From Malacoraja senta (taxonomy: Eukaryota): a stretch of DNA of 64,000 nt. The translations under genes and the position numbers were made by a program. The DNA is taken from contig CM075993.1 of assembly GCA_038087875.1 (NCBI GenBank), positions 10,728,001-10,792,000 on the forward strand, read 5' to 3'. The notes beneath the pieces are model-generated. The model saw nothing but the letters and a program-made list of their open reading frames with translations, made no database searches and was not told the origin of the DNA. Positions 2,606-52,244 of the stretch are shown piece after piece (the first letter of the stretch is position 1; each line of letters starts with the position of its first letter).

Positions 2606-3471
2606 ACCCCCCCCCCCCCCCCCCCCTCCACCCCCCTACACAACCTAGACCCCAGCCTACTCAACAAAGACCCAGATAACTCAACCCAGCCTACTTGTCG
2701 AGGTTCATTAAAGCATGAGGGGCACGGATAAGGGGAAAATCACGATCTTAATCTCAGGTGGAGGAACGAGCTGCTGGAGGAAGTGGTAGAGGTGGGTGCG
2801 ATTATGACATGTAAGAGATATTTGGACAGGGACATGAAGAGCAAAAGTCTGGTACCGGCCCAGGTAGGTGGGACCAGCTGAGTTGGGCATCTTGGCCAGC
2901 ATGGGTGAGTCGGGCTGGAGGAGCCGTTTCCATGCTTGATAGGTCTATGACTTCACAACATATAGAAACATAGAAAATAGGTGCAGGAGTAGGCCATTCA
3001 GCCCTTCGAGCCAGCACCGACATTCAATATGATCACGGCAGATCATCCACAATCAGCACCCCGTTCCTGCTTTCACCCCATATCCCTTGATTCCAGTAGT
3101 CCTAAGAGCTAAATCTAACTCTCTCTTGAAAACATCCAGTGAATTGGCCTCCACTGCCTTCTGTGGTGGAGAATTCCACGTGTAGATCGGTTATTGCATG
3201 CTAGCCAATCATAGTGCTTGTTAGTAGTAGCCCCGTCTAATACATACTTTATAATATTAAGAATCCGCCTACGTAGGGCAGTAGATGTAGCCGCTCGGAG
3301 ATGTACTACAGATCCTATGCTGTAAGTGTTTAATAAAGATGTGTTGTATCTTTACGTGCGTTTGAGTCCTGTAATTACATGGTGTCAGATCGTGACTCAG
3401 ACTCACTCCGCCCCTCTTTTACTTTTATCAGTTTTATTTTATCACTTTGTTCTCTCCGTCGTGGCTAATTC

Positions 3472-6400
3472 GTGCCGCAGACTACTGTATCACTACTGCT
3501 TAATCTAGCGGGTCCAGAGGCAATGAATCGTGCTGACAACTTTGACCTTGCTCCTGCTATTGTGGATGGCAACGGGCAGGTCCAAGTCCCTGCCGAGACT
3601 GTAGATGACCCCGTGGTTCTCCTCAGAAAATTTAGAGAGCTGTGTGATCTGCCGTCAAACCACATAATTGAACGGACGAAGTTCTATGCTCGTTTGCAGC
3701 AGGCTGATGAACCTATTGAACTATTTATTAGCGGCTTGAAACACATGGCTGTGCACTGTCGCTTCGGTGAGTTGACTAATGAACTTGTTAGAGATAAGCT
3801 TGTCGGGGGCATGATCGATAGCAAACTGAGAGCTGAGCTCCTTCGCAACACCGAACGAACTATTGTCCAAGCGATTCATTCATGTCGAATTTCAGAGATT
3901 ACTGCTCCCCATGCTGATCCTGATTTTTTCAACCCACGACAGCAGCACGTCAATCTTACTGACCACCCCTCCCACAATGCCCCTAAGGTGCCTGCTGCTC
4001 TATGTCAGAATTATAATTATTTTCATGCAAAGGGTCGCCAATTCTGCATAGTTTACGGAAAGACCTGCAATTATTGTAAAAAGCAGAACTACTTTGCGAA
4101 ATGCTGCCGTTCTCGTGGGACTGCCAATCCTTCAAGGACAATCTTGGACCTGCTTCAACAAGAGTTCTCCGATACTGACTCCCCAGAGCCTGAAACATCC
4201 TCCCACGAGACACTGCTGATAACAGTTCTGCTATTCACTCCCTCCTCCCTTCGTCTAATGAGCTACTCGACCCTGAAGTGACCCTGAAGTTCATAAATAA
4301 CAGACCCACACTAGCCAAAGTGGATACAGGGGCAAAGGCCAACGTCATGTCGATAAGGGAGTTTAACTAAATCCGAAATGCCGAACAAATGCTTAAGGAC
4401 TCCTCAACGCTTCGGGCTTATGGGGGAGAGATCTTACATCCACTGTGCACAGTAGATGAGCAGACGCGCCCCCTGTAGTTTTACATTGTAAAAACAAAAC
4501 TCAGAGACTCTGCTTGGTATCAATGCATGCCACGACCTAGGCCTGGTGTATTTTGGACATGCGGTCCACAAACTATGCCTCACTGACGAGCCAGCACAGC
4601 AACTGCTCTCCCAGTACAAAGACCTGTTTAATGATGGACTTGGCAAGTTGCCTGTAAAGTATCGAATCACACTTGATCCTACAGTCACACCTGTAGTCCG
4701 AGCACCACATCACGTTCCACATACCATGTGCGACAGAATACGTAATGAACGCATGGTCTCAATGGGAGTCATTGCCGAAGTTACCGGCCCGTCTCACTGG
4801 GTTTCCACCATGGTCGTTGCAACTAAGAAAAACAAAGAGGAGATATGTATCTGCATCAATCCCAGAGATCTGAATACTGCAATCAAGCGCCCCCACTACC
4901 CAATGAGAACTACAGAAGATGTTGTTGCACAGATTGGAAATACAGCAGTGTTCTCAGTCCTGGATGCCAAAAGCTCCTTTTGGCAGATCCCATTAGACAC
5001 GGACTCATCCAACCTCACTACTTTTTGCACAACCTTCGGCCGTTTCAAATTTCTAAGGATGCCCTTCGGCATCAACTCCACCAGCGAAGTTTCCCAGTGC
5101 ACCATGGAACAACTATTTGCAGAGTACACGTGCGCTATCATTGTTGATGATATCTTCTTCTATGGTCGCGACCTGGCTGAATATGATGCTAATCTGAAGA
5201 GAGTGCTCGACTGCGCCAAAGACATTAATCTCAAATTGATTCCACTAAAGTGCAGGTTTCGAGTTCCCGAGGTCACTTACATCAGACATGTTTTCACCAG
5301 CAGTGGCCTCAAGCCTGATCTACTGAAAACCACAGCCATCAACGAACTGCCTGTTCCCACTGATGTCACGAGTTCGCAACGATTCCTCGGCATGGTCAAC
5401 TACCTGGGTAAATTTATTCCTAACCTCAGCGGGTTATCGGCCCCACTGCGCAAGCTGACACACAAAGATAGGGCATGGTCCTGGTACCCGCAGCACCAAA
5501 GGGCTTTTGACACGCTCAAGCTACAACTGGCCAGCGCGCCAACACTTTCATATTTCGATCTAGAATTACCAGTTACTATCTCCTGCGATGCGTCCCAGTA
5601 TGGGCTAGGCGCGGCACCCACTACCCAATGAGAACTACAGAAGACGTCGCTGCACAGATTGGAAATACAGCGGTGTTCTCAGTCCTGGATGCCAAAAGCT
5701 CCTTTTGGCAGATCCCATTAGACACGGACTCATCCAACCTCACTACTTTTGGCACATCCTTTGGCCGTTTCAAATTTCTAAGGATGCCCTTCGGCATCAA
5801 CTCCGCCAGCGAAGTGATCCCGCCACTACCGACGGCGGGATCAAGCCAGTCTCATATGCATCCCGTACCGTGACTGATACCGAACAGCGATATGCTCAGA
5901 TTGAAAAGGAACTGCTCGCGGTTGTTTTCGCATGTTCGAAATTCAAGGACTTCATTTTAGGTAAGACCATCACCATCGAGACTGAGCACCAACCCTTGGT
6001 CACTATTTTGAACAAGCCGATTCATGCGGCCCCAGCACGGCTGCAACGGACGATGATGCAGCTGTAGCGCTTTGACTTCCACATCGTCAACATGAAAGGT
6101 AAAGACATGCACATAACAGACATGCTATCCAGAGCCCCGCGCAGTACCAGTGAGTTTGTCCCTACTGATCGCTTACGCTGCCTTGCCGAACACACGGCTG
6201 CGGACGAGACTTTACAATTGCTGTCCACAGTCATACGGAACGGTTGTCCCCACAAACGGTCAAATACCCCGCTCGAGATACGCCCCTACTTCCTAGTTCG
6301 TGACGAGTTAGTGCTACAGGACGGAATCATAGTCAAGGGCCACAAGGCGGTGGTCCCAGCCGCACTACGGGTCGAATACTACAACGACATCCACAGGGGC

Positions 6401-7300
6401 AACGCCGGCACGAAGGCCACCCTCCAACGGGCTCAAAGTGTGTTTTACTGGCCCGGAATGACAAAATACATACGTGAAAGAACCAAAACAGTTTAGCACC
6501 ACACCAGCAGGAGCAGCCTCTTCTGCCCCATCCAGTTCCTCCTCTTCTGTGGTCCTCGCTGGCTGCCGACATCTTCGACTGGCATTGGAAACACTATCTA
6601 GTTCTTGTTGATTCTTACTCGGGATGGTTCGAACTAGACCGACTGCAAACCATTTCCTCTGAGTCAGTGATCGAGAAGCTGCAACGCACCTCTCCGTGCA
6701 TGGCTCGCTCCCCTGCTCGTATCCAGACTGACAATGGCAGGCAATTCACCAGCCAAGCGTTTAAGAACTTTGCTGAAAGATGGGACTTCCGACACATTAC
6801 CAGCAGCCCAGAGTTCCCGCAGTCCAATGGACTGGCCAAGCGCACTGTTCAGAGTGCGAAACAATTTATGGAACGTTCCTACCTTGCCAAATCCGACGTA
6901 TACCTGGACTTGCTCAATCTATGAAACATTGCATGGGACAACATCCGAGGCTCTCCTGCCCAGTGACTAGTGTCTCGCCAGACCCGTGTACCCCTTCCTG
7001 TCTCTCAGCAGCTACTGCAGCCACGCGTCCGCTCCCCGCCCGCGGTGCAGAAGCAGCTACAATTCAAGCGTTTCTACGACAAGTCCAGCAAGCCACTCAA
7101 ACCACTTGAGCATGGACAAGTGGTTCGCCTGCAAACCGACAAGGGCCATACACGACTGGGGCACATTTACGGACCCGTCCAAAGAACCACGTTCGTACCT
7201 GGTCGAAGTGGACGGAGTCATCTACAGACGCAACCGTCAACATATCCTTCCAGTGAAGGAACCGCGTCCTGCAACTACAGGTCCTGATGCCCCGCCTCTG
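3472..7300 (+). pseudogene. Gypsy gag-pol, disrupted
   Basis: ORF pieces 3472-4281 (gag, CNYCKKQNYFAKCC), ~4315 (KVDTGAKANVM), 4546-5631 (RT), 5705-6067 (RNase H, YAQIEKELLAVVFA) and 6092-7287 (integrase, TDNGRQF, PQSNGLA, PRSYLVE). Confidence 0.9.
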
Positions 7301-7708: not shown

Positions 7709-10170
7709 GCTGAGGAAGAGAATGGGGTGCTGAGGAAGAGAATTTCTTGGAATGTATGCGGGATAGTTATCTAAATCAACATGTAGAGGAACCAACGAGA
7801 GAGCAGGCTATTTTAGACTGGGTATTGAGTAATGAGGAAGGGTTAGTTAGCAGTCTTGTTGTACGTGCCCCCTTGGGCAAGAGTGACCACAATATGGTTG
7901 GTTCTTCATTAGGATGGAGAGTAACATTGTTAATTCAGAAACAATGGTTCTGAACTTAAAGAAAGGTAACTTTGAGGGTATGAGACGTGAATTGGCCAAG
8001 ATTGACTGGCAATTAATTCTAAAAGGGTTGACGGTGGACATGCAATGGAAGACATTTAAAGACTGCATGGATGAACTACAAAAATTGTTCATCCCAGTTT
8101 GGCAAAAGAATAAATCAGGGAAGGTAGTGCATCCGTGGATAACAAGGGAAATCAGGGATGGTATCAAAGCGAAGGATGATGCGTACAAATTAGCCAGAAA
8201 AAGCAGCATACCGGAGGACTGGGAGAAATTCAGAGACCAGCAGAGGAGGACAAAGGGCTTAGTTAGGAAAGGAAAAATAGATTATGAAAGAAAACTGGCA
8301 GGGAACATAAAAACTGACTGCAAAAGTTTTTATAGATATGTAAAAAGAAAGAGATTATTTAAAACAAATGTAGGTCCCTTGCAGTCAGAAACAGGTGAGT
8401 TGATCATGGGGAACAAGGATATGGCAGACCAATTGAATAACTACTTTGGTTCCGTCTTCACTAAGGAAGACATAAATAATCTGCCGGAAATAGCAGGGGA
8501 CCGCGGGTCAAAGGAGTTGGAGGAATTGAGTGAAATCCAGGTTAGTCGGGAAGTGGATTTGGGTAAATTGAATGGATTAAAGGCCGATAAATCCCCAGGG
8601 CCAGATAGGCTGCATCCCAGAGTACTTAAGGAAGTAGCTCCAGAAATAGTGGATGCATTAGTAATAATCTTTCAAAACTCTTTAGATTCTGGAGTAGTTC
8701 CTGAGGATTGGCGGGTAGCAAACGTAACCCCACTTTTTCAGAAGGGAGGGAGAGAGAAAACGGGGAATTACAGACCAGTTAGTCTAACATCGGTAGTGGG
8801 GAAACTGCTAGAGTCAGTTATTAAAGATGGGATAGCAGCACATTTGGAAAGTGGTGAAATCATTGGACAAAGTCAGCATGGATTTACGAAAGGTAAATCA
8901 TGTCTGACGAATCTTATAGAATTTTTCGAGGATGTAACTAGTAGCGTGGATAGGGGAGAACCAGTGGATGTGGTGTATCTGGACTTCCAGAAGGCTTTCG
9001 ACAAGGTCCCACATAAGAGATTAGTATACAAACTTAAAGCACATGGCATTGGGGGTTCAGTATTGATGTGGCTAGAGAACTGGCTGTCAAACAGGAAGCA
9101 AAGAGTAGGAGTAAACGGGTCCTTTTCACAATGGCAGGCAGTGACTAGTGGGGTACCGCAAGGCTCAGTGCTGGGACCCCAGCTATTTACAATATATATT
9201 AATGACCTGAAGGAGGGAATTGAAGGCACTATCTCCAAGTTTGCGGATGACACTAAGCTGGGGGGCAGTGTTAGCTGTGAGGAGGATGCTAGGAGACTGC
9301 AAGGTGACTTGGATAGGCTGGGTGAGTGGGCAAATGTTTGGCAGATGCAGTATAATGTGGATAAATGTGAGGTTATCCATTTTGGTGGCAAAAACAGGAA
9401 AGCAGACTATTATCTAAATGGTGGCCGACTAGGAAAAGGGGAGATGCAGCGAGACCTGGGTGTCATGGTACACCAGTCATTGAAAGTAGGCATGCAGGTG
9501 CAGCAGGCAGTGAAGAAAGCGAATGGTATGTTAGCTTTCATAGCAAAAGGATTTGAGTATAAGAGCAGGGAGGTTCTACTGCAGTTGTACAGGGTCTTGG
9601 TGAGACCACACCTGGAGTATTGCGTACAGTTTTGGTCTCCAAATCTGAGGGAGGACATTATTGCCATAGAGGGAGTGCAGAGAAGGTTCACCAGACTGAT
9701 TCCTGGGATGTCAGGACTGTCTTATGAAGAAAGACTGGATAGACTTGGTTTATACTCTCTAGAATTTAGGAGATTGAGAGGGGATCTTATAGAAACTTAC
9801 AAAATTCTTAAGGGGTTGGACAGGCTAGATGCAGGAAGATTGCTCCCGATGTTGGGGAAGTCCAGGACAAGGGGTCACAGCTTAAGGATAAGGGGGAAAT
9901 CCTTTAAAACCGAGATGAGAAGAACTTTTTTCACACAGAGAGTGGTGAATCTCTGGAACTCTCTGCCACAGAGGGTAGTCGAGGCCAGTTCATTGGCTAT
10001 ATTTAAGAGGGAGTTAGATGTGGCCCTTGTGGCTAAAGGGATCAGAGGGTATGGAGAGAAGGCAGGTACAGGATACTGAGTTGGATGATCAGCCATGATC
10101 ATATTGAATGGCGGTGCAGGCTCGAAGGGCCGAATGGCCTACTCCTGCACCTAATTTCTATGTTTCTATG
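7709..10170 (+). mobile_element. 5'-truncated young CR1/HER1-type LINE
   Basis: Endonuclease end (LDWVL, SDHNM) followed by a 721-aa open RT ORF and a 3'UTR with a (TTTCTATG) tail. Confidence 0.95.
7914..10079 (+). CDS. CR1 LINE ORF2 reverse transcriptase, N-terminally truncated
   Basis: Motifs KSPGPD, NYRPVSLTS, YLDFQKAFDKV, GVPQGSVLGP and KFADD. Confidence 0.93.
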   Translation: MESNIVNSETMVLNLKKGNFEGMRRELAKIDWQLILKGLTVDMQWKTFKDCMDELQKLFIPVWQKNKSGKVVHPWITREIRDGIKAKDDAYKLARKSSIPEDWEKFRDQQRRTKGLVRKGKIDYERKLAGNIKTDCKSFYRYVKRKRLFKTNVGPLQSETGELIMGNKDMADQLNNYFGSVFTKEDINNLPEIAGDRGSKELEELSEIQVSREVDLGKLNGLKADKSPGPDRLHPRVLKEVAPEIVDALVIIFQNSLDSGVVPEDWRVANVTPLFQKGGREKTGNYRPVSLTSVVGKLLESVIKDGIAAHLESGEIIGQSQHGFTKGKSCLTNLIEFFEDVTSSVDRGEPVDVVYLDFQKAFDKVPHKRLVYKLKAHGIGGSVLMWLENWLSNRKQRVGVNGSFSQWQAVTSGVPQGSVLGPQLFTIYINDLKEGIEGTISKFADDTKLGGSVSCEEDARRLQGDLDRLGEWANVWQMQYNVDKCEVIHFGGKNRKADYYLNGGRLGKGEMQRDLGVMVHQSLKVGMQVQQAVKKANGMLAFIAKGFEYKSREVLLQLYRVLVRPHLEYCVQFWSPNLREDIIAIEGVQRRFTRLIPGMSGLSYEERLDRLGLYSLEFRRLRGDLIETYKILKGLDRLDAGRLLPMLGKSRTRGHSLRIRGKSFKTEMRRTFFTQRVVNLWNSLPQRVVEASSLAIFKRELDVALVAKGIRGYGEKAGTGY

Positions 10171-34819: not shown

Positions 34820-35439
34820 AACAGGCCCTTTGGCCCACCGGGTCCGCGCTGATCAGTGATTCCCATACACCAGCACTATCCTACACACTATGGCCAATTT
34901 AAAATGGTGTCATGTGGATCTGACCCACTGAGTTCTTCCAGCATTGTTTTTTTGTGTGGAGTGGATAGAGAGAAACTCTTCCCATTGGCAGAAAGAAAAG
35001 CACAAGACATAGATTGAAGGTGAATGGCAAATGTAACAGTAAAAAGGATGAGGTGTTTAAAAAAATGCCTTTTTTTGGTCTGTGATGCATTGCTACTGTT
35101 TTATTAGAGGCAGAATCAATTGCAGCATTAAAAAGGGAACAGGATATGCATGTGAAAGGAAAGAATTTGCAGAGCTGTTGAGAGAAAGGTGGGGGAGTGG
35201 AACTGAACCAGATTGCTCTCACATTCACTATTCTACAGACAAGAACACAGGATGGATTTGAGAGGACAAAGTGGTCACGCTCGTGATATATCCTGTGCAC
35301 CCACACATGATTTGGCTGGAGCATGCAAGATTTGAGTCTGCAAAGAAAGTTATTGAGGCTGAATAGTCTGAGTTTGAAAGCGCTACAAATACAAAACAAA
35401 AAAAGATACAAAGTGCTAGTGTAACTCAGCGGGTCAGAC

Positions 35440-35844
35440 CAAAGATCCTATAGCGGAGCAAGATAGATCACTCCTGCTAAATGCAATGGGCTGATGTGTA
35501 GTAAGCCTTTTTACTATGCAATGGGCTGACGTGGGCCTTTTTTTCCATCCATTTCCGTAACCCGACTCGCAGTGTAATCAACGTTGCGGCGGAACAGTTT
35601 GTGTTAATAAATAAAATTCTGAAAATGAGGAGAAGATTTTTACCAAATAACTTTTATTTTTACGAGGATGTTTCCGTAACCGGCTTCCGCCTCTGCACTA
35701 GTATCTTTGCTCCGCTATGGGATCTTTGGTGCGGAGACGGAAGCCGGTAACGGAAATGGGGCCTAAAATTACCCATGAATCTGCCCATGACCGTACTACG
35801 TCTTTTTCGTCGAGTGGACTATCTTGCTTTCTATAGGATCTTTG
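35440..35844. mobile_element. hAT-type MITE (405 bp)
   Basis: TIR CAAAGATCCTATAG / CTATAGGATCTTTG with an 8-bp TSD GGTCAGAC (35432-35439 and 35845-35852). Confidence 0.9.
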
Positions 35845-38800
35845 GGTCAGACATCGTCAGTCTAAAGAAGGGTCCTGACCCAAAACATCATTACCCATGT
35901 TCTCTAGGAATGCTGCCTGACCTGCTGGGTTTGTGTCCTTGTTTTGTAAACCAACATCTTAGTTCCTTGTTTCTCCTCTCCCAACCCCACTCCATTTACA
36001 TTCCTTCTTCGTGCTTCACAATTGTTATCTCTTCAATCCTTTTGTCTCGCACGTTGTCATTTCATCTCTGGCCTTTGTCCAACCATCTGTCTAACAAAAA
36101 GCCCCCTCACCTGCATCCACCCTTTACCTGCCAGGCTTTGTTCTGCCCCTCCTCGCTTCCAGCTCCCCCCCCCCCCCTCCCTCCTAAAATCATTCTGAAG
36201 AAGGGACTCTACCCAAAACGTCACCTATCCATGTTCTCTAGGGGTGCTGCCTGACCCGCTGGATTTGTCTCTTATTTTTGTAAACCAGCATCTACAGTTC
36301 CTTGTTTCTACAAATAAGGCGGATATGTTTCTGCCATCAATTTGCCTAACCCTATATTTATGTAATGCTAAAGATAGATTCAGAGGTGCTTTCGACAAGT
36401 TACCTGGCCCACTGGAAATCTCTAGGCAGCTGACACCCCAGCAGTATGAATATTGATTTGTCTAACTTCAAGCCATGATCACAATGAATGGCGGTGCTGG
36501 CTTGAAGGGCCGAATGGCCTCCTCCTGCACCTATTTTCTATGTTTTTAAGTAGCCCTTGCTTTTCCCTCTCTCTCCACCCCCCTCCTTCCTAGTTCTCCG
36601 ACCAGCTTGACGGTATCCCTGGATTAAATTTTATCTCTGTACGCTTCGTCGTCAGCTTCTCCGAGCTAACAATGATCTATTCCACATTTTCCTTGAGGTA
36701 CATCCCCTTTGATGTTCAAGAAGGAGCTACAGATGCCGGAAAATCGAAGGTAGACAAAATTGCTGGAGAAACTCAGCGGGTGCGGCAGCATCTATGGAGC
36801 GAAGGAAATAGGCTACGTTCGGGACGAAACGTTGCCTATTTCCTTCGCTCCATAGATGCTGCCGCACCCGCTGAGTTTCTCCAGCAATTTTGTCTATCTC
36901 CTTTGATGTCTCGTTTTCACACCTTTCCCTTCCTTATCTCCGTGTCTCCCTCTCCCCTGACTCTCAGTCTGAAGAAGGGTCTCGAACCAAAACGTCACCC
37001 ATTCCTTCCCTCCGGAGATGCTGCCCATCCCGCTGTTACTCCAGCATTTGGTGTCTATCCACTGGAAATCTATAGTGGTTAAAATAAAAGTGTCCAAGCG
37101 ACGAAGCCAAAATCCCAACGCAGTAAGTGTTTAGTTTATTCTGCAGTCAGCATCTTTGTCATAGGACTGCCTCAAATAAATTGCCCAAACATGACATTTT
37201 AGCTGATGTTAACACATTTCCCAAGTTATCTTGAATGAGACTTTTTTTGATCTTTCATAATATAAAATTCAAACTATGCCAACAAATAATCATGGAGCAA
37301 AGAAAGATACTGATCAATACAATACTGGCTTTCATTTAAAAAGGTGGTGTAAAAGTTGTATGGCAGACCTGGTCATCTGCACTACTAAACTGAATCATTA
37401 TAAAACAATAAACAGCCCAACAAGGTCATGCTGGTTTAGTTTAGTTTAGAGATACAGCACGGAAATAGGCCCTTCGGCCCACCAAGTCTGCGCCGACCAG
37501 AGATCCCCGCATATTAGCACTATCTTACACAGGCTGGAGACAATTTAACCAAACCAATTAGCCTACAAACCTGTGTGTCTTTCGAGAGTGGGGGGAAACC
37601 GGAGCACCCGGAGAAAACCCACGCAGGTCACGGGAGAATGTACAAACTCAGTACAGACAGCACCTGTAGTCAGGAGCGAACCTCGGTCTCTGGCGCTGTA
37701 AGGGCAGAAGCTCTACCGCTACGTCACCGTGCCGCCCCATGGATACAAGAATGCAGATGCTGGTGTACACAAAAAAGGACAAAGTGCTGGAGTAACACAG
37801 CGGGTCAGCCAGCATCTCCGAGAGCATGGGGAGGTGATGTTTTGAGTCTGCATCCTTCTTCAGATTGATTGGGGGGAGGGGGGTGGGGGGGGGGGGGGGG
37901 GGGGGGGGGAGAAGAAAGCTGGAGTAACGAGTTGATACTGTTTTCTGTACAACAATGCAGAAAGTTCTGTTTACACAGTTCTTTTCATAGTCCTACAAAT
38001 TAACTTCCCTCACGCCTACCGAACATCCTTATGCCGTATAAGATGCGTAGGTTTATAAATACCAAAGGGAACCAGCTGGTTACAAAATTAGAGGGGAAGT
38101 GAGAATTGAAATGAGGGACAAAGGCAGTTTTTTGAGAAAAGTTAAGCTGCAAACAGAAAAGAGAATCCAAAAGTGTTCTGTAAATGGTAGATGTGCCTAG
38201 AAGGGTGGACCCACAAAGAACTAAAAAGGAACTTAGAAACATAGAAACATAGAAAATAGGTGCAGGAGTAGGTCATTCGGCCCTTCGAGCCTGCACCGCC
38301 ATTTGATATGATCATGGCTGATCATCCAACTCAGTATCCCATCCCTGCCTTCTCTCCATACCCCCTGATCCCTTTAGCCACAAGGGCCAACTTGGGGATG
38401 CTAAGGGGAAATGAGGACTTGGCACGTTTCACAAGGCAAGAGGATGTTACCAAGTAATAGTCAAGGTGGAGACAGTTGAGACATTAGAAATATGAAAAAA
38501 ACTGATGGCGGGGGGGGGGGGGAGATGTCTATCAGTAGCATTGACCTTGGAGGAGTTGATAATTTGCAGGACCATAGAGCAGAGGATTTTGTGGGAAGTA
38601 AAGGAAAAGCATGGAGAAATATTCACGGAGTACAATTAGGCCATTCGGCCCATTGAGTCTATGCTGCCATTCAATCGAGGCTGATCGCTGCCTCCTAATC
38701 CCATTTTTCTCCCCATAACCCTTGACACCCGTTCTAATCAAGAATTTGTCTCACTCTGCCAAGGACCTGGCCTCCACAGCATCTGTGGCAATGAGTTCCA

Positions 38801-38882: not shown

Positions 38883-39082
38883 NNNNNNNNNNNNNNNNNN
38901 NNNNNNNNNNNNNNNNNNNNNNNNNNNNNNNNNNNNNNNNNNNNNNNNNNNNNNNNNNNNNNNNNNNNNNNNNNNNNNNNNNNNNNNNNNNNNNNNNNNN
39001 NNNNNNNNNNNNNNNNNNNNNNNNNNNNNNNNNNNNNNNNNNNNNNNNNNNNNNNNNNNNNNNNNNNNNNNNNNNNNNNNNN
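38883..39082. other. Assembly gap (200 N)
   Basis: Run of N with a round length, probably a placeholder size. Confidence 0.99.
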
Positions 39083-39973: not shown

Positions 39974-39976
<3 letters not shown>

Positions 39977-40109
39977 GCGATGTGGGGAGGAAGGAAGGTC
40001 AGCGCTCCTCGGACAACATCGCCCCGCTGCCTTGGCCGTTGGGAACTCCTCGCCACCGCCTCCCTCCTCCGCCAGCCAACAGCAAGGTGCGGGGCCGAGC
40101 GGTGCAGCT

Positions 40110-40137
40110 CAAAGATCCTATAGCTATAAGATCTTTG
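40110..40137. mobile_element. 28-bp TIR-only member of the same hAT-type family
   Basis: CAAAGATCCTATAG directly joined to CTATAAGATCTTTG, with an 8-bp TSD GTGCAGCT (40102-40109 and 40138-40145). Confidence 0.85.
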
Positions 40138-40156
40138 GTGCAGCTGCTTCAGACGA

Positions 40157-40504
40157 GTCGGAGCGAATGACGGACATCGCACAGCGGCAGCAGCGGCCGC
40201 AGCGGCCACGACAGCAGCTCCATCTCCTCCTCCTCCCGCCAGCCCTGATAAGGGCCGCTTCTTGTAAACCCGCTAACGGAGATAACCGCTTTCAAAACAA
40301 ACCCTCCCGCACTCCGAGGCCTCCCCCTCCCTCTCTCCTCCCGGCCTCGGAGTGCGGGAGGATTTGTTTTGAAAGCGTTATCGCCGTTAGCGGATTTACA
40401 AGCAGCGGCCCTTATCAGGGCGGGCGGGGGGCGGGAGGAGGGGGAGTTGGAGCCGCTGTCGCGGCTGCTGCCGCCGCTGTTTGGGGCCCGTCATTCGCTC
40501 CGAC
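40157..40504. repeat. GC-rich imperfect palindrome (~165-bp arms, ~20-nt pyrimidine loop)
   Basis: gtcggagcgaatgacgg...gaggcc / ggcctc...ccgtcattcgctccgac. Confidence 0.9.
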
Positions 40505-40736
40505 CCTTCCTCACCCCGCACCTAGTTTCTTTCCCACGCACAGCCGCCGCCGACACGAAACATCGCGTTCCTTTTCTCCAGAGATGCTGCCTGGCCCGCG
40601 GAGTTACTCCAGTTTTTTGTGTTTTATCTTCAGTACAAACCAGTATCTGGTTGCCAAGCCGGGCAAAATGACTCGGTGTTTAGGTTGCCCGGCGGCGCTT
40701 TGAGTGGTCAGTGGCACCCAGGCAACCGCTAATTTC

Positions 40737-42025
40737 GAGCCCTGTGTTTATCAACATGAGGACCAAAGTTGTGCCAATGAAAGTCAAAGAAGCCATTATG
40801 AGACTGAGATACAAGAATAAACCTGTTGGAGACATCAGCCAAACCTTAGGCTTACTAAAATCAACTGTTTGGAACATCATTAAGAAGAGAGCACTGGTGA
40901 GCTTACTAAACGCAAAGGGACTGGCAGGCCAAGGAAGACCTCCACAGCTGATGACAGAAGAATTCTCTCTATAATAAAGAAAAATCCCCAAACAGATCAG
41001 AAACACTCTTCAGGAGTGGATTTGTCAATGACCATTGTCCACAGAAGACTTCATGAACAGAAACACAGAGGCTACACTGCAAGATGCAAACCACTGGTTA
41101 GCTGCAAAAATAGGATGACCAGGTTAGTTTGCCAAGAAGTACTTAAAAGAGCAACAACAGTTCTGGAAAAAGGTCTTGTGGACAGATGAGACGAAGATTA
41201 ACCTATATCAGAGTGATGGCAAGAACAAAGTATGGAGGAGAGAAGGAACTGCCCAAGATCCAAAGCATACCACCTCATCCGTGAAACACAGTGGTGGAGG
41301 TGTTATGGCCTGGGCATGTATGGGTGCTGAAGGTACTGGCTCACTTATCTTCATTGATGATACAACTGCTGATGGTAATAGCATAATGAATTCTGAAGTG
41401 TATAGACACATCCTATCTGCTCAAGTTCAAACAAATGCCTCAAAACTCATTGGCCGGCGGTTAATGCTACAGCAAGACAATGATCCCAAACATACTGCTA
41501 AAGCAACAAAGGAGTTTTTCAAAGCTAAAAAATGGTAAATTCTTGAGTGGCCAAGTCAATCACCCGATCTGAACCCAATTGAGCATGCCTTTTATGTGCT
41601 GAAGAGAAAACTGAAGCAGACTGGCCCCCAAAACAAGCATAAGCTAAAGATGGCTGCAATACAGGCCTGGCAGAGCATCCCCAGAGAAGACACCCAGCAA
41701 CTGGTGATGTCCATGAATTGCAGACTTCAAGCAGTCATTGCATGCAAAGGATATGCAACAAAATACTAAACATGACTACTTTCATTTACATGACATTGCC
41801 GTGTCCCAAACATTATGGTGCCCAGAAATGGTGGGGGACTATATAAACACTGCTGTAATTTCTACATCGTGTAACCAAAATATATAAAAATTGCCTTTAT
41901 TAAAATCTGACAATGTGCACTTTAACCACATGTGATTTTTTTTCTATTACAAATCTCAAATTGTGAAGTACAGAGGCAAATAAATAAATGATAGGTCTTT
42001 GTCTCACATATTATGGAGGGCACTG
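40737..42025 (+). mobile_element. Tc1/mariner DD34E transposon remnant: transposase 40756-41769 (disrupted) plus right long TIR
   Basis: WTDETK, QQDNDPKH and SPDLNPIE with 34 residues between the second D and E. In-frame stop at 41536-41538 and frameshifts. Ends ...GAGGGCACTG followed by TA. Confidence 0.93.
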
Positions 42026-49583: not shown

Positions 49584-52244
49584 TTGCTTTGTTGCGCGCA
49601 TTCCACTCTCTAGGCCCTCACCCCCTCATCTTCACCATGGACGTCCAGTCATTGTAGCAATGTTACAAAATTTTGAGATTTAAAAAATAAAGTCTGCAAT
49701 TTATCCCATCAGATAAAGCATAAAAAGAAGTTTAATTTGACACTTAATTCACTTTCATATCTTCAGTATTAAAAAAGTTATGGCCATTATCATACTCAGA
49801 AATTAGCATCTAGTTCCCTATTGCTTTTCCATTGACTTAACACAAAAGCTGTGATCGAGGACAGTTAAAAGCCCATAACTTTCTTAAAAATTATGGTAAC
49901 TGAAAGAAATTTTCAGGTATTATAGATTGAAGCATTCTGAAACAAATATGAAACAATCTTACTTCGAAGACATGAAAGTAAAGCATATAATTAGTTAGTT
50001 ACCTAATTGTAGCTAATTACAAAATTCAATTACTAGATCTAAACATCTATCAATTTCTTAAGAATAGATTAACATTTTTAAATAGCCTAAGTGTCCAAAT
50101 AACATTCACACAATAATTCACAATATAACATAATTTTTAAATCTAATTTTCATGAATTTACAGGCCAAATGGAAGGAATTGAATGTTTAATACCTGTAAA
50201 TTAATGGGGATTTAATTCATCTTGCGAGTGAGAATTACTGGAACGCGATCTTTTGGAACGTTCATTTGCGGTGAATTTAACCCCGTATTGGCATGAAAAA
50301 TACTGCCGTTAATTCGGGGAATAAAATCACCGTGTCGCATGACAAAATGTGAATTAAAGGCTTCTTAAGAAGCACTTTTATACATTTAAAGAAAGCACTT
50401 TTGTTTACCTGTCCATTGTGTGAAATCCGTCCCCGTTATTGGCGTTGATGCTTCAGGAGCTGCTTTTAAAATGACTCTAGCGCTGACATTGACGATTTAA
50501 TTTAAAAAAAAAATTCACAAATCGCCGGTAGGAACGATTTTGTCAGCGAAGTTTTGTACTCCAACAAAATATTTCCAGGACAAGGGAGAAACCCGCGTTT
50601 TAACCCCGCCCCCCCCTTAAAGGCGCCAAAATCGCGCACACGGCCAGTGGCAGAATTACAGCGCGACTGAAGGTAAGTTTTGTAACATACCTAGTCATTG
50701 TACACCTCCATCCCCCACCAGGATGGACTCGAAGCCCTCCGGTTTTTCCTCGACCGAAGAAGCAACCTATACCCGGCCACTGACACCCTCCTCCGCCTAG
50801 CGGAGCTGGTCCTTACCCTCAATAACTTCTCATTTGACTCCTCCCATTTCCTCCAAATACAAGGCGTAGCTATGGGCACACGCATGGGCCCCAGCTACGC
50901 CTGCCTCTTTGTCGGGTACGTAGAACAATCCTTGTTCAATACGTACCAGGGCCCCATCCCCGACCTCTACCTCCGCTACATCGATGACTGTTTTGGTGCC
51001 AACTCCTGCACCCACACACAACTGACTGACTTCATCCGCTTCACCACCAACTTCCATCCAGCACTCAAATACACCTGGACCATTCCGACACTTCCCTACC
51101 ATTCCTTGACCTCACTATCTCCATCGCAGGTGATAGACCATACCGACATCCACTACAAACCTACCGACTCCCATGGCTATCTGGACTACACTTCTTCCCA
51201 CCCTGCTTCCTGTAAGGACTCCATCCCCCACTCTCAATTGCTCCGTCTACGCCGCATCTGCTCCCAGGATGAGGCGTTCCACACCAGGGCACCCGCAATG
51301 TCCTCATTCTTCAGGAACGGGGTTTCCCCATCTCCACCATAGATGAGGCTCGCACCAGGGTCTCTGCCATACCCCGCAACACTGCTCTCTCTCACCATCC
51401 CCACTCACAACAAGGGTAGAGTCCCCCTAGTCCTCACCTTTCATCCCACCAGCCATCACATACAACAAGTGATCCTCCGTCAGTTTTGCCACCTCCAACG
51501 TGACCCCACCACTCGCCACATCTTCCCATCTCCCCCCATGTCTGCCTTCTGCAAAGACCGCTCCCTCCGTAACTCCCTTGTCAATTCTTCCCTTCCCTCC
51601 CGTACCACCCCCTCCCTGGGTACTTTCCCTTGCAACCGCAAGAGATGCAACACTTGTCCCTTCACCTCCCCCTCGATTCCAATCAAGGACCCAAGCAGTC
51701 GTTCCAGGTGCGACAGAGGTTCACCTGCATCTCCTCCAACCTCATCTATTGCATCCGCTGCTCTAGATGTCAGCTGATCTACATCGGTGAGACCAAGCGG
51801 AGGCTTGCCAATCGTTTCGCCGAACACCTCCGGTTGGTCCGCAATAACCAACCTGACCTCCTGGTGGCTCAGCACTTCAACTCCCCCCTCCCATTCCGTA
51901 TCTGACCTCTCTGTCCTGGGTCTCCTCCATGGCCACAGCGAGCAACACCGGAAATTGGAGGAAATGCACCTCATATTCCGCTTGGGCAGTCTACATCCTG
52001 GTGGCATGAACATTGAATTCTCCCAACTCTGCTAGCCCTTGCTGTCCCCTCCCCTTCATCAGCCCTCTGGTTGTCTCCTCCCACCCCCCAGCCCTCGGGC
52101 TCCTCCTCCGCCTTTTTTCTTTTTTCCTTTCTTCTCCCCACCCCCTATCAGTCTGAAGAAGGGTTTCGGCCCGAAACGTTGCCTATTTCCTTCGCTCCAT
52201 AGATGCTGCTGCACCCGCTGAGTTTCTCCAGCATTTTTGTGTAC
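49584..52244 (+). mobile_element. Penelope-like element (RT + GIY-YIG), 5'-truncated, frameshifted, with a hammerhead motif at the 3' end
   Basis: Motifs TMDVQSLYTSIP, GVAMGTRMGP, YLRYIDD and LIYCIRC...YIGET. Flanked by a direct repeat ctttgttgctaacactttg (49565-49583 and 52245-52263). Confidence 0.92.
49655..50693. mobile_element. AT-rich non-autonomous TIR transposon (1039 bp) with a 7-bp TSD, inserted in the Penelope RT
   Basis: TIRs tagcaatgttacaaaa / ttttgtaacataccta. TSD GTCATTG at 49648-49654 and 50694-50700. Removing it restores MDVQSLYTSIP. Confidence 0.88.

Follow-up and report, generated by a model that had tools for sequence, protein, structure and literature searches.

A 28-bp pair of head-to-head TIR remnants between 8-bp TSDs: probable excision scar of a P-like element, carried as a passenger in a larger repeat

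A 28-bp unit that, with the 8-bp TSDs around it, spans 40102-40145 of the window (the whole stretch of DNA analyzed here, 64,000 nucleotides) is probably the scar that a P-superfamily element left at its donor site on excision, and that then multiplied as a passenger of a larger repeat. The unit is real; on present evidence, mobility of its own is not supported. The case is made below from its anatomy and a likely parental family in the same window, from copies in related organisms, from units with the same termini in metagenomes, and from comparison with described P and hAT systems.

The unit and its likely parental family

The left (40102-40109) and right (40138-40145) TSD copies, neither assigned a strand, both read GTGCAGCT, and the direct duplication around the unit ends at 8 bp. 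Between them lie two inverted arms of 14 bp each (40110-40123 and 40124-40137) with one mismatch, an arrangement already described in the first-pass annotation and confirmed from the window sequence. The mismatch involves an A at 40129, a variant position where G is common in related organisms. Measured against the ends of a 405-bp MITE elsewhere in the window, the left TIR remnant (40110-40124, plus strand) is a 15-nt match to the MITE's left end, and the right remnant (40124-40137, minus strand) matches 14 nt of its right end, or 15 nt of a left-type end; all of these lengths are within 17 nt. Because of these match lengths, the arms overlap at the junction (40123-40124, unstranded) in a microhomology of 1 nt (C, for the window MITE's own two ends) or 2 nt (GC, if both ends were left-type). 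The unit thus combines features of a P-type excision scar: both TSDs intact, two TIR remnants, and short microhomology.

Matches to the 14-mer at no more than two mismatches number five in the window, against 0.66 expected and a count of five in 0/100 shuffles; they are the two unit arms, the two MITE ends and one internal MITE end. Across the 64-kb window, the unit is the sole inverted unit of 20-40 bp with a perfect 8-bp flanking repeat.

The MITE itself (35440-35844, plus strand) is non-coding, lies 4.3 kb from the unit, and is taken as a member of the same family and a model for the parent element. Its ends are alike, though imperfectly, over about 28 bp, with the outer 14 bp perfect; the unit therefore retains just the outer half of the TIR. 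The MITE interrupts a SINE and is flanked on the left (35432-35439) and right (35845-35852) by TSDs reading GGTCAGAC (both unstranded); this is a true duplication, since other SINE copies in the window hold the equivalent 8-mer once only. That the unit's arms match the TIRs of a MITE with its own, different TSD, as first annotated, is accordingly borne out for the 14-bp termini and for GGTCAGAC.

The MITE combines short TIRs with internal inverted repeats, as expected of the P superfamily. Within it, a 30-bp copy of the element's left end (35699-35728, minus strand) stands between inverted 28-bp arms (35671-35698 and 35729-35756). These arms are 89% complementary, and the internal end may be an internal inverted repeat or the relic of a self-insertion. 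An Rfam search gave 0 matches. SINE fragments in the window also occur as abutting inverted pairs, for example at 36748-36899, where 72-nt arms with 8 nt between them are 97% complementary.

Copies of the host repeat in related organisms

The unit sits in an abundant repeat, compared here over 39976-40565 (unstranded), within which 40157-40504 forms a long imperfect inverted repeat (unstranded). Contigs from four related organisms (runs X1, X2, X15 and X16; 3349-5569 contigs per run) were placed on this stretch. The runs had been picked with a query of which half was a Tc1-like element, and the best share was 0.52; they are therefore probably from relatives rather than from the window's own species, and no distinction can be drawn between orthologous and paralogous copies. 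All 30 bins of 39976-40565 are covered in 4/4 organisms, which also contain a form of the host repeat without approximately 40153-40315. Summed contig depth over 40116-40135 is 427,000, 111,000, 46,000 and 133,000, with listed single contigs at 12-270, depth here not being equivalent to copy number.

Record 10 (X15) and record 18 (X16) span the unit and 31 letters or more of either flank at about 89-90% identity; X1 and X2 records also cross it but reach less far to the right. The palindrome is perfect with G at 40129, the letter found in 70-100 contigs per run; the window's A is likewise common in X15 and X16. A change at TIR position 3 (40112) is common to 18-66 contigs per run. Eighteen X16 contigs exit at 40107 into sequence resembling the right flank (consensus agreement 0.78, first letter different), apparently the empty form of the site. 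No full-length element at 40102-40145 was seen among the loose ends listed for the four organisms. The shared flanks, shared TIR mutations and apparent empty form together lead to the conclusion that the 28-mer was amplified as a passenger: it is a fixed part of a subfamily of the larger repeat, duplicated together with the sequence around it and able to decay. These same shared flanks and mutations, and the variety of junctions found elsewhere (below), speak against the initial suggestion of an extremely small mobile unit. The check proposed with that suggestion also needs correcting, as an identical junction in many copies would speak for mobility only if the flanks of those copies differed.

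Some features of these alignments are of interest in themselves. In X1, 32 contigs depart at 40117, 8 nt into the TIR (agreement 0.46), and are possibly other junction forms. A 6-nt deletion at 40124-40129, present in one contig each from X16, X1 and X2, would yield a 22-bp form of the unit and could reflect slippage in a tandem 6-mer. At 40640-40744 of the window, a SINE piece is followed by a TIR-like end (at 40744) that reads CAGGG on the minus strand. The host repeat may have its right end here and may reach, on the other side, into an N gap at 38883-39082; no partner for the TIR-like end was found in the window.

Units with the same termini in metagenomes

A pattern of two copies of the TIR's outer 11 nt, 0-12 nt apart and hence confined to units of 22-34 bp, matched 58 metagenome loci, or 38 sites after flank clustering. 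An abutting direct repeat of 7 or 8 bp with at most one mismatch is present at 17/38 sites (12 perfect). The corresponding figure is 0/24 for GTDB and viral controls (Fisher p=6e-5), which were found with a wider gap (0-30) and, with several related cyanobacterial genomes among them, are not fully independent; pairing flanks of different sites gave 10/1406. Among repeat lengths of 4-10, perfect repeats are solely of 7 bp (nine sites) and 8 bp (three sites). Abutting TSDs are absent at 21/38 sites: nine of these are prokaryote-like, one (L018/L037) has a 7-bp repeat 39 bp further out, and the remainder are unexplained or decayed.

Many of the loci are ORF-poor, and L006 adjoins exons of an Arpin-family gene, so that they resemble animal DNA; ORF-dense matches with prokaryote or phage domains are without TSDs. 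Setting aside 9/38 sites as ORF-dense or prokaryote-like leaves an animal-like set of 29. Because this cut was made partly by eye (L039 was kept and L055 dropped at equal ORF cover), the TSD count was taken over all 38 sites.

Across the 29 animal-like sites there are 25 different unit sequences, 22-34 bp long; two are 22-mers, the product that annealing at the 6-nt palindrome within the TIR should give. Matches to the window MITE's end reach 17 nt at L001 and 16 nt at four other sites. Arms in these units of at most 34 bp are mostly 11-19 nt long, with several of 18-19 nt and one, in L014, of 23 nt as measured against a parent-like end; those above 17 nt can be put down to a cut slightly deeper than that, to chance matching or to a degree of repair synthesis. 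Some sequences recur: an identical 29-mer stands at four separate sites, of which three have a 7-bp repeat, perfect at two and mismatched at one, and an identical 34-mer stands at two. The 29-mer can be explained from the parent-like end in L037 (18-nt match) by joining at a unique 2-nt microhomology. Neither the window's 28-mer (0/82 loci, metagenome and control) nor the MITE interior was found in the pattern-matched set, the latter apart from two matches of 17-20 nt in the same 82. Five sites (L001, L002, L009, L031 and L040) share flank sequence, so capture by a host repeat may have occurred there too. An extended target motif is weak (A at -3 in 14/28 half-sites, p=0.02 uncorrected for five positions) and was not used.

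Three individual cases may be mentioned here. At L037 612-684, the same site as L018, a single 7-bp direct repeat encloses a 39-bp element end and, after it, a 34-bp TIR-TIR unit; this may be a complex repair product or a nested event. At L033 1001-1032, a TIR-TIR unit with no TSD contains TTAGGG-like repeats at its junction, its immediate flanks being inverted over about 12 bp; possibly, telomere-like sequence was captured at a break. A conserved 30-bp palindrome with the same outer 11 nt and no TSD, found in seven Nostoc/Calothrix genomes (L062, L067, L072-L074, L077, L079), is probably an unrelated hairpin.

P or hAT superfamily

Target duplications are 8 bp at both window elements, and 7 and 8 bp are the sole perfect lengths at related sites. 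The 14 seven-bp TSDs have the symmetrised consensus GTA(A/T)TAC and agree with GTANTAC at 51/84 positions, against a mean of 22 and a maximum of 38 for random 7-mers from the same loci (10,000 draws). GTANTAC is the reported TSD consensus of Galileo, whose TSDs are 7 bp and occasionally 8 bp (PMC4168063); P, 1360 and Galileo are listed together as P superfamily members (PMC3698922). The other palindromic target motifs compared were those of P itself, GTCCGGAC or GGCCAGAC, the latter an early P target consensus (PMC2577343). The five 8-bp TSDs agree with GGCCAGAC at 7, 6, 4, 3 and 3 of 8 positions at best: the MITE's at 7/8, the scar's own at 4/8, and L007 and L047 at 3/8 each, so that two of the three metagenome ones match poorly. 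The fit of the 7-bp TSDs to GTANTAC indicates the P superfamily rather than hAT.

The original annotation had named hAT or P-like transposases, and the P-like candidate is strengthened by the TSD motif. A hAT assignment was considered for the 8-bp TSD, short TIR and CA...TG ends, all features shared with hAT MITEs. It does not fit the 7-bp GTANTAC TSDs of the related units, nor the TIR sequence left at the site: hAT excision is described as forming hairpins on the flanking DNA and leaving no TIR sequence behind (PMC5499845), which makes hAT unlikely, as 28 bp of TIR persist here, if the unit is an excision product.

No transposase tied to these TIR ends was found in the window's 20 long ORFs or in 150 of the 161 ORFs of at least 75 aa that lie outside 3.4-10.7 kb; the 44 ORFs of the metagenome loci contain no THAP or Tnp_P_element domain, and the MITE-end pattern has 0 matches in viral contigs and 0 in GTDB. 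As a transposase linked to these ends was not found, P membership is not proven; judged from its TSDs, the family works like a P element.

Proposed origin of the unit

The comparison that best accounts for the unit is with the Drosophila P element. Its transposase is reported to cut one strand 17 nt inside each TIR (PMC7776569), leaving 17-nt TIR tails whose end-joining gives TSD-TIR-TIR-TSD products with 1-3 nt of microhomology (PMC2895639). At P(wa), junctions of 14 nt + (AT) + 14 nt between intact TSDs make up 14/68 and are jointly the commonest, the partner class in that rank leaving almost no TIR (PMC2895639, Table 1). This type of scar is already well documented in laboratory Drosophila.

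By analogy, an element with the MITE's ends would have inserted into one copy of the larger repeat, duplicating 8 bp. A P-type transposase would then have excised it, cutting one strand at each end of the element and its partner strand some 15-18 nt into the TIR; each flank, as for Drosophila P, would thereby have kept a single-stranded TIR tail. Annealing of the tails at 1-2 nt of microhomology, followed by end-joining, would give TSD + 28 bp + TSD. Multiplication of the scarred host repeat would finally have spread the 28-mer in fixed flanks, as those flanks are seen in the four related organisms. In itself the unit would be functionless, and a transposase should not accept it as a substrate, because the inner half of the TIR is missing and two 17-nt-deep cuts would overlap within 28 bp.

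The resemblance to P(wa) junctions lies in the intact 8-bp TSDs, the head-to-head TIR remnants of no more than about 17 nt, their joining at 1-2 nt of microhomology and the total of about 28-32 bp. The window unit differs in being natural and fixed, with another TIR sequence, in a non-insect animal, and in its later amplification within another repeat. Galileo and 1360 (PMC4168063, PMC3698922) are likened to the family by TSD rather than by end sequence: the related units' 7-bp TSDs have the consensus GTA(A/T)TAC, and both 7 and 8 bp occur, whereas the window unit's TSD is 8 bp and the TIRs are short (about 28 bp), not long foldbacks. Zebrafish Pdre/THAP9 elements (PMC10983969, PMC7776569) are described as having short TIRs (13 bp in zebrafish P-like elements; PMC10983969), internal inverted repeats, 8-bp TSDs and internally deleted copies, a likeness by description and not by sequence; unlike the window scar, Pdre excision is reported with flanking deletions.

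Alternative explanations

The strongest rival, though unlikely, is that a full element, of any superfamily with 8-bp TSDs, lost all but the outer 14-15 bp by in situ deletion or by abortive gap repair, in which synthesis from a template copy breaks off. The MITE has a strong fold (z = -10.9) and may be prone to deletion; L014 retains 23 nt of one end; and at L018/L037, where 39 nt of an end and a TIR-TIR unit share a single 7-bp repeat, some synthesis or deletion must have taken place. Lengths within 22-34 bp do not discriminate between a stagger and a deletion, and their distribution was left out of the argument. Deletion nevertheless provides no reason for both ends to stop so often within about 11-19 nt at independent sites and in different element families, and the TSD motif points to the sole superfamily known for long TIR tails. 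Abortive gap repair or internal deletion had been the second suggestion of the first-pass annotation: a remnant made in place is retained from it, with end-joining of TIR tails the likelier mechanism.

It is less probable still that the 28-mer and the related 29-mer were moved in trans, as TIR-only micro-elements, by a P-like transposase. The identical 29-mer at four sites (three with a 7-bp repeat) and the 34-mer at two would suit such movement, but the 29-mer is derivable from the 2-nt microhomology in L037, and identical junctions recur in Drosophila as well (14/68). The window's 28-mer is, moreover, at none of the 82 loci, and its copies in the relatives share flanks and have spread the TIR position-3 change. 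Sequence requirements also weigh against it: D. melanogaster P is reported to need 138 and 216 bp at its ends, with Anopheles P-MITEs retaining less than 100 bp (PMC1562414). If the micro-element reading were true, these units would be far below any cis requirement in the cited papers, and the four 29-mers would be insertions rather than repair outcomes.

A chance palindrome or assembly artefact is counted as refuted, its likelihood being negligible: short palindromes with these ends do occur in prokaryote DNA (23 GTDB loci), but a TSD is present at 0/24 prokaryote and viral controls, and contigs of independent runs cross the unit.

Implications

The long staggered cut distinguishes P transposase and, in the cited papers, has been measured for the Drosophila enzyme only; natural scars would make cut depth and repair route readable from genomes, family by family, without a working enzyme. 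We lean, by a modest margin of belief, towards the view that the scars described here show the P-type stagger of about 17-18 nt to be conserved in a non-insect subfamily, with 11-16 nt of the termini conserved across distant animals. Such scars could also help in assigning orphan MITEs with 8-bp TSDs to P over hAT. For annotation, they call for caution: once captured in a repeat that amplifies, a scar becomes numerous, with the same junction from copy to copy, and may be taken for a tiny mobile element. A literature search on the exact TIR strings and on natural P-like scars returned nothing relevant among the papers listed; repeat databases were outside its scope, and the family may already be catalogued.

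Other features of the window

The window is repeat-rich DNA of animal type, with Gypsy-like, LINE-like and Tc1-like fragments, and its repeats suggest a cartilaginous fish. The three kinds of fragment and a weak GIY-YIG match were all that the transposase search recovered. The Gypsy-like pol is broken (RT, RNase H and integrase pieces) and, together with a 730-aa LINE-like RT frame, occupies 4492-6921 and 7887-10076. A degenerate Tc1-like element lies at about 40750-42025, with a Pfam HTH_Tnp_Tc3_2 match at 40884-41186 (E 5e-7, just below the curated cut-off). The GIY-YIG match, at 51573-51902 (E 4.5e-5), is possibly a Penelope-like fragment.
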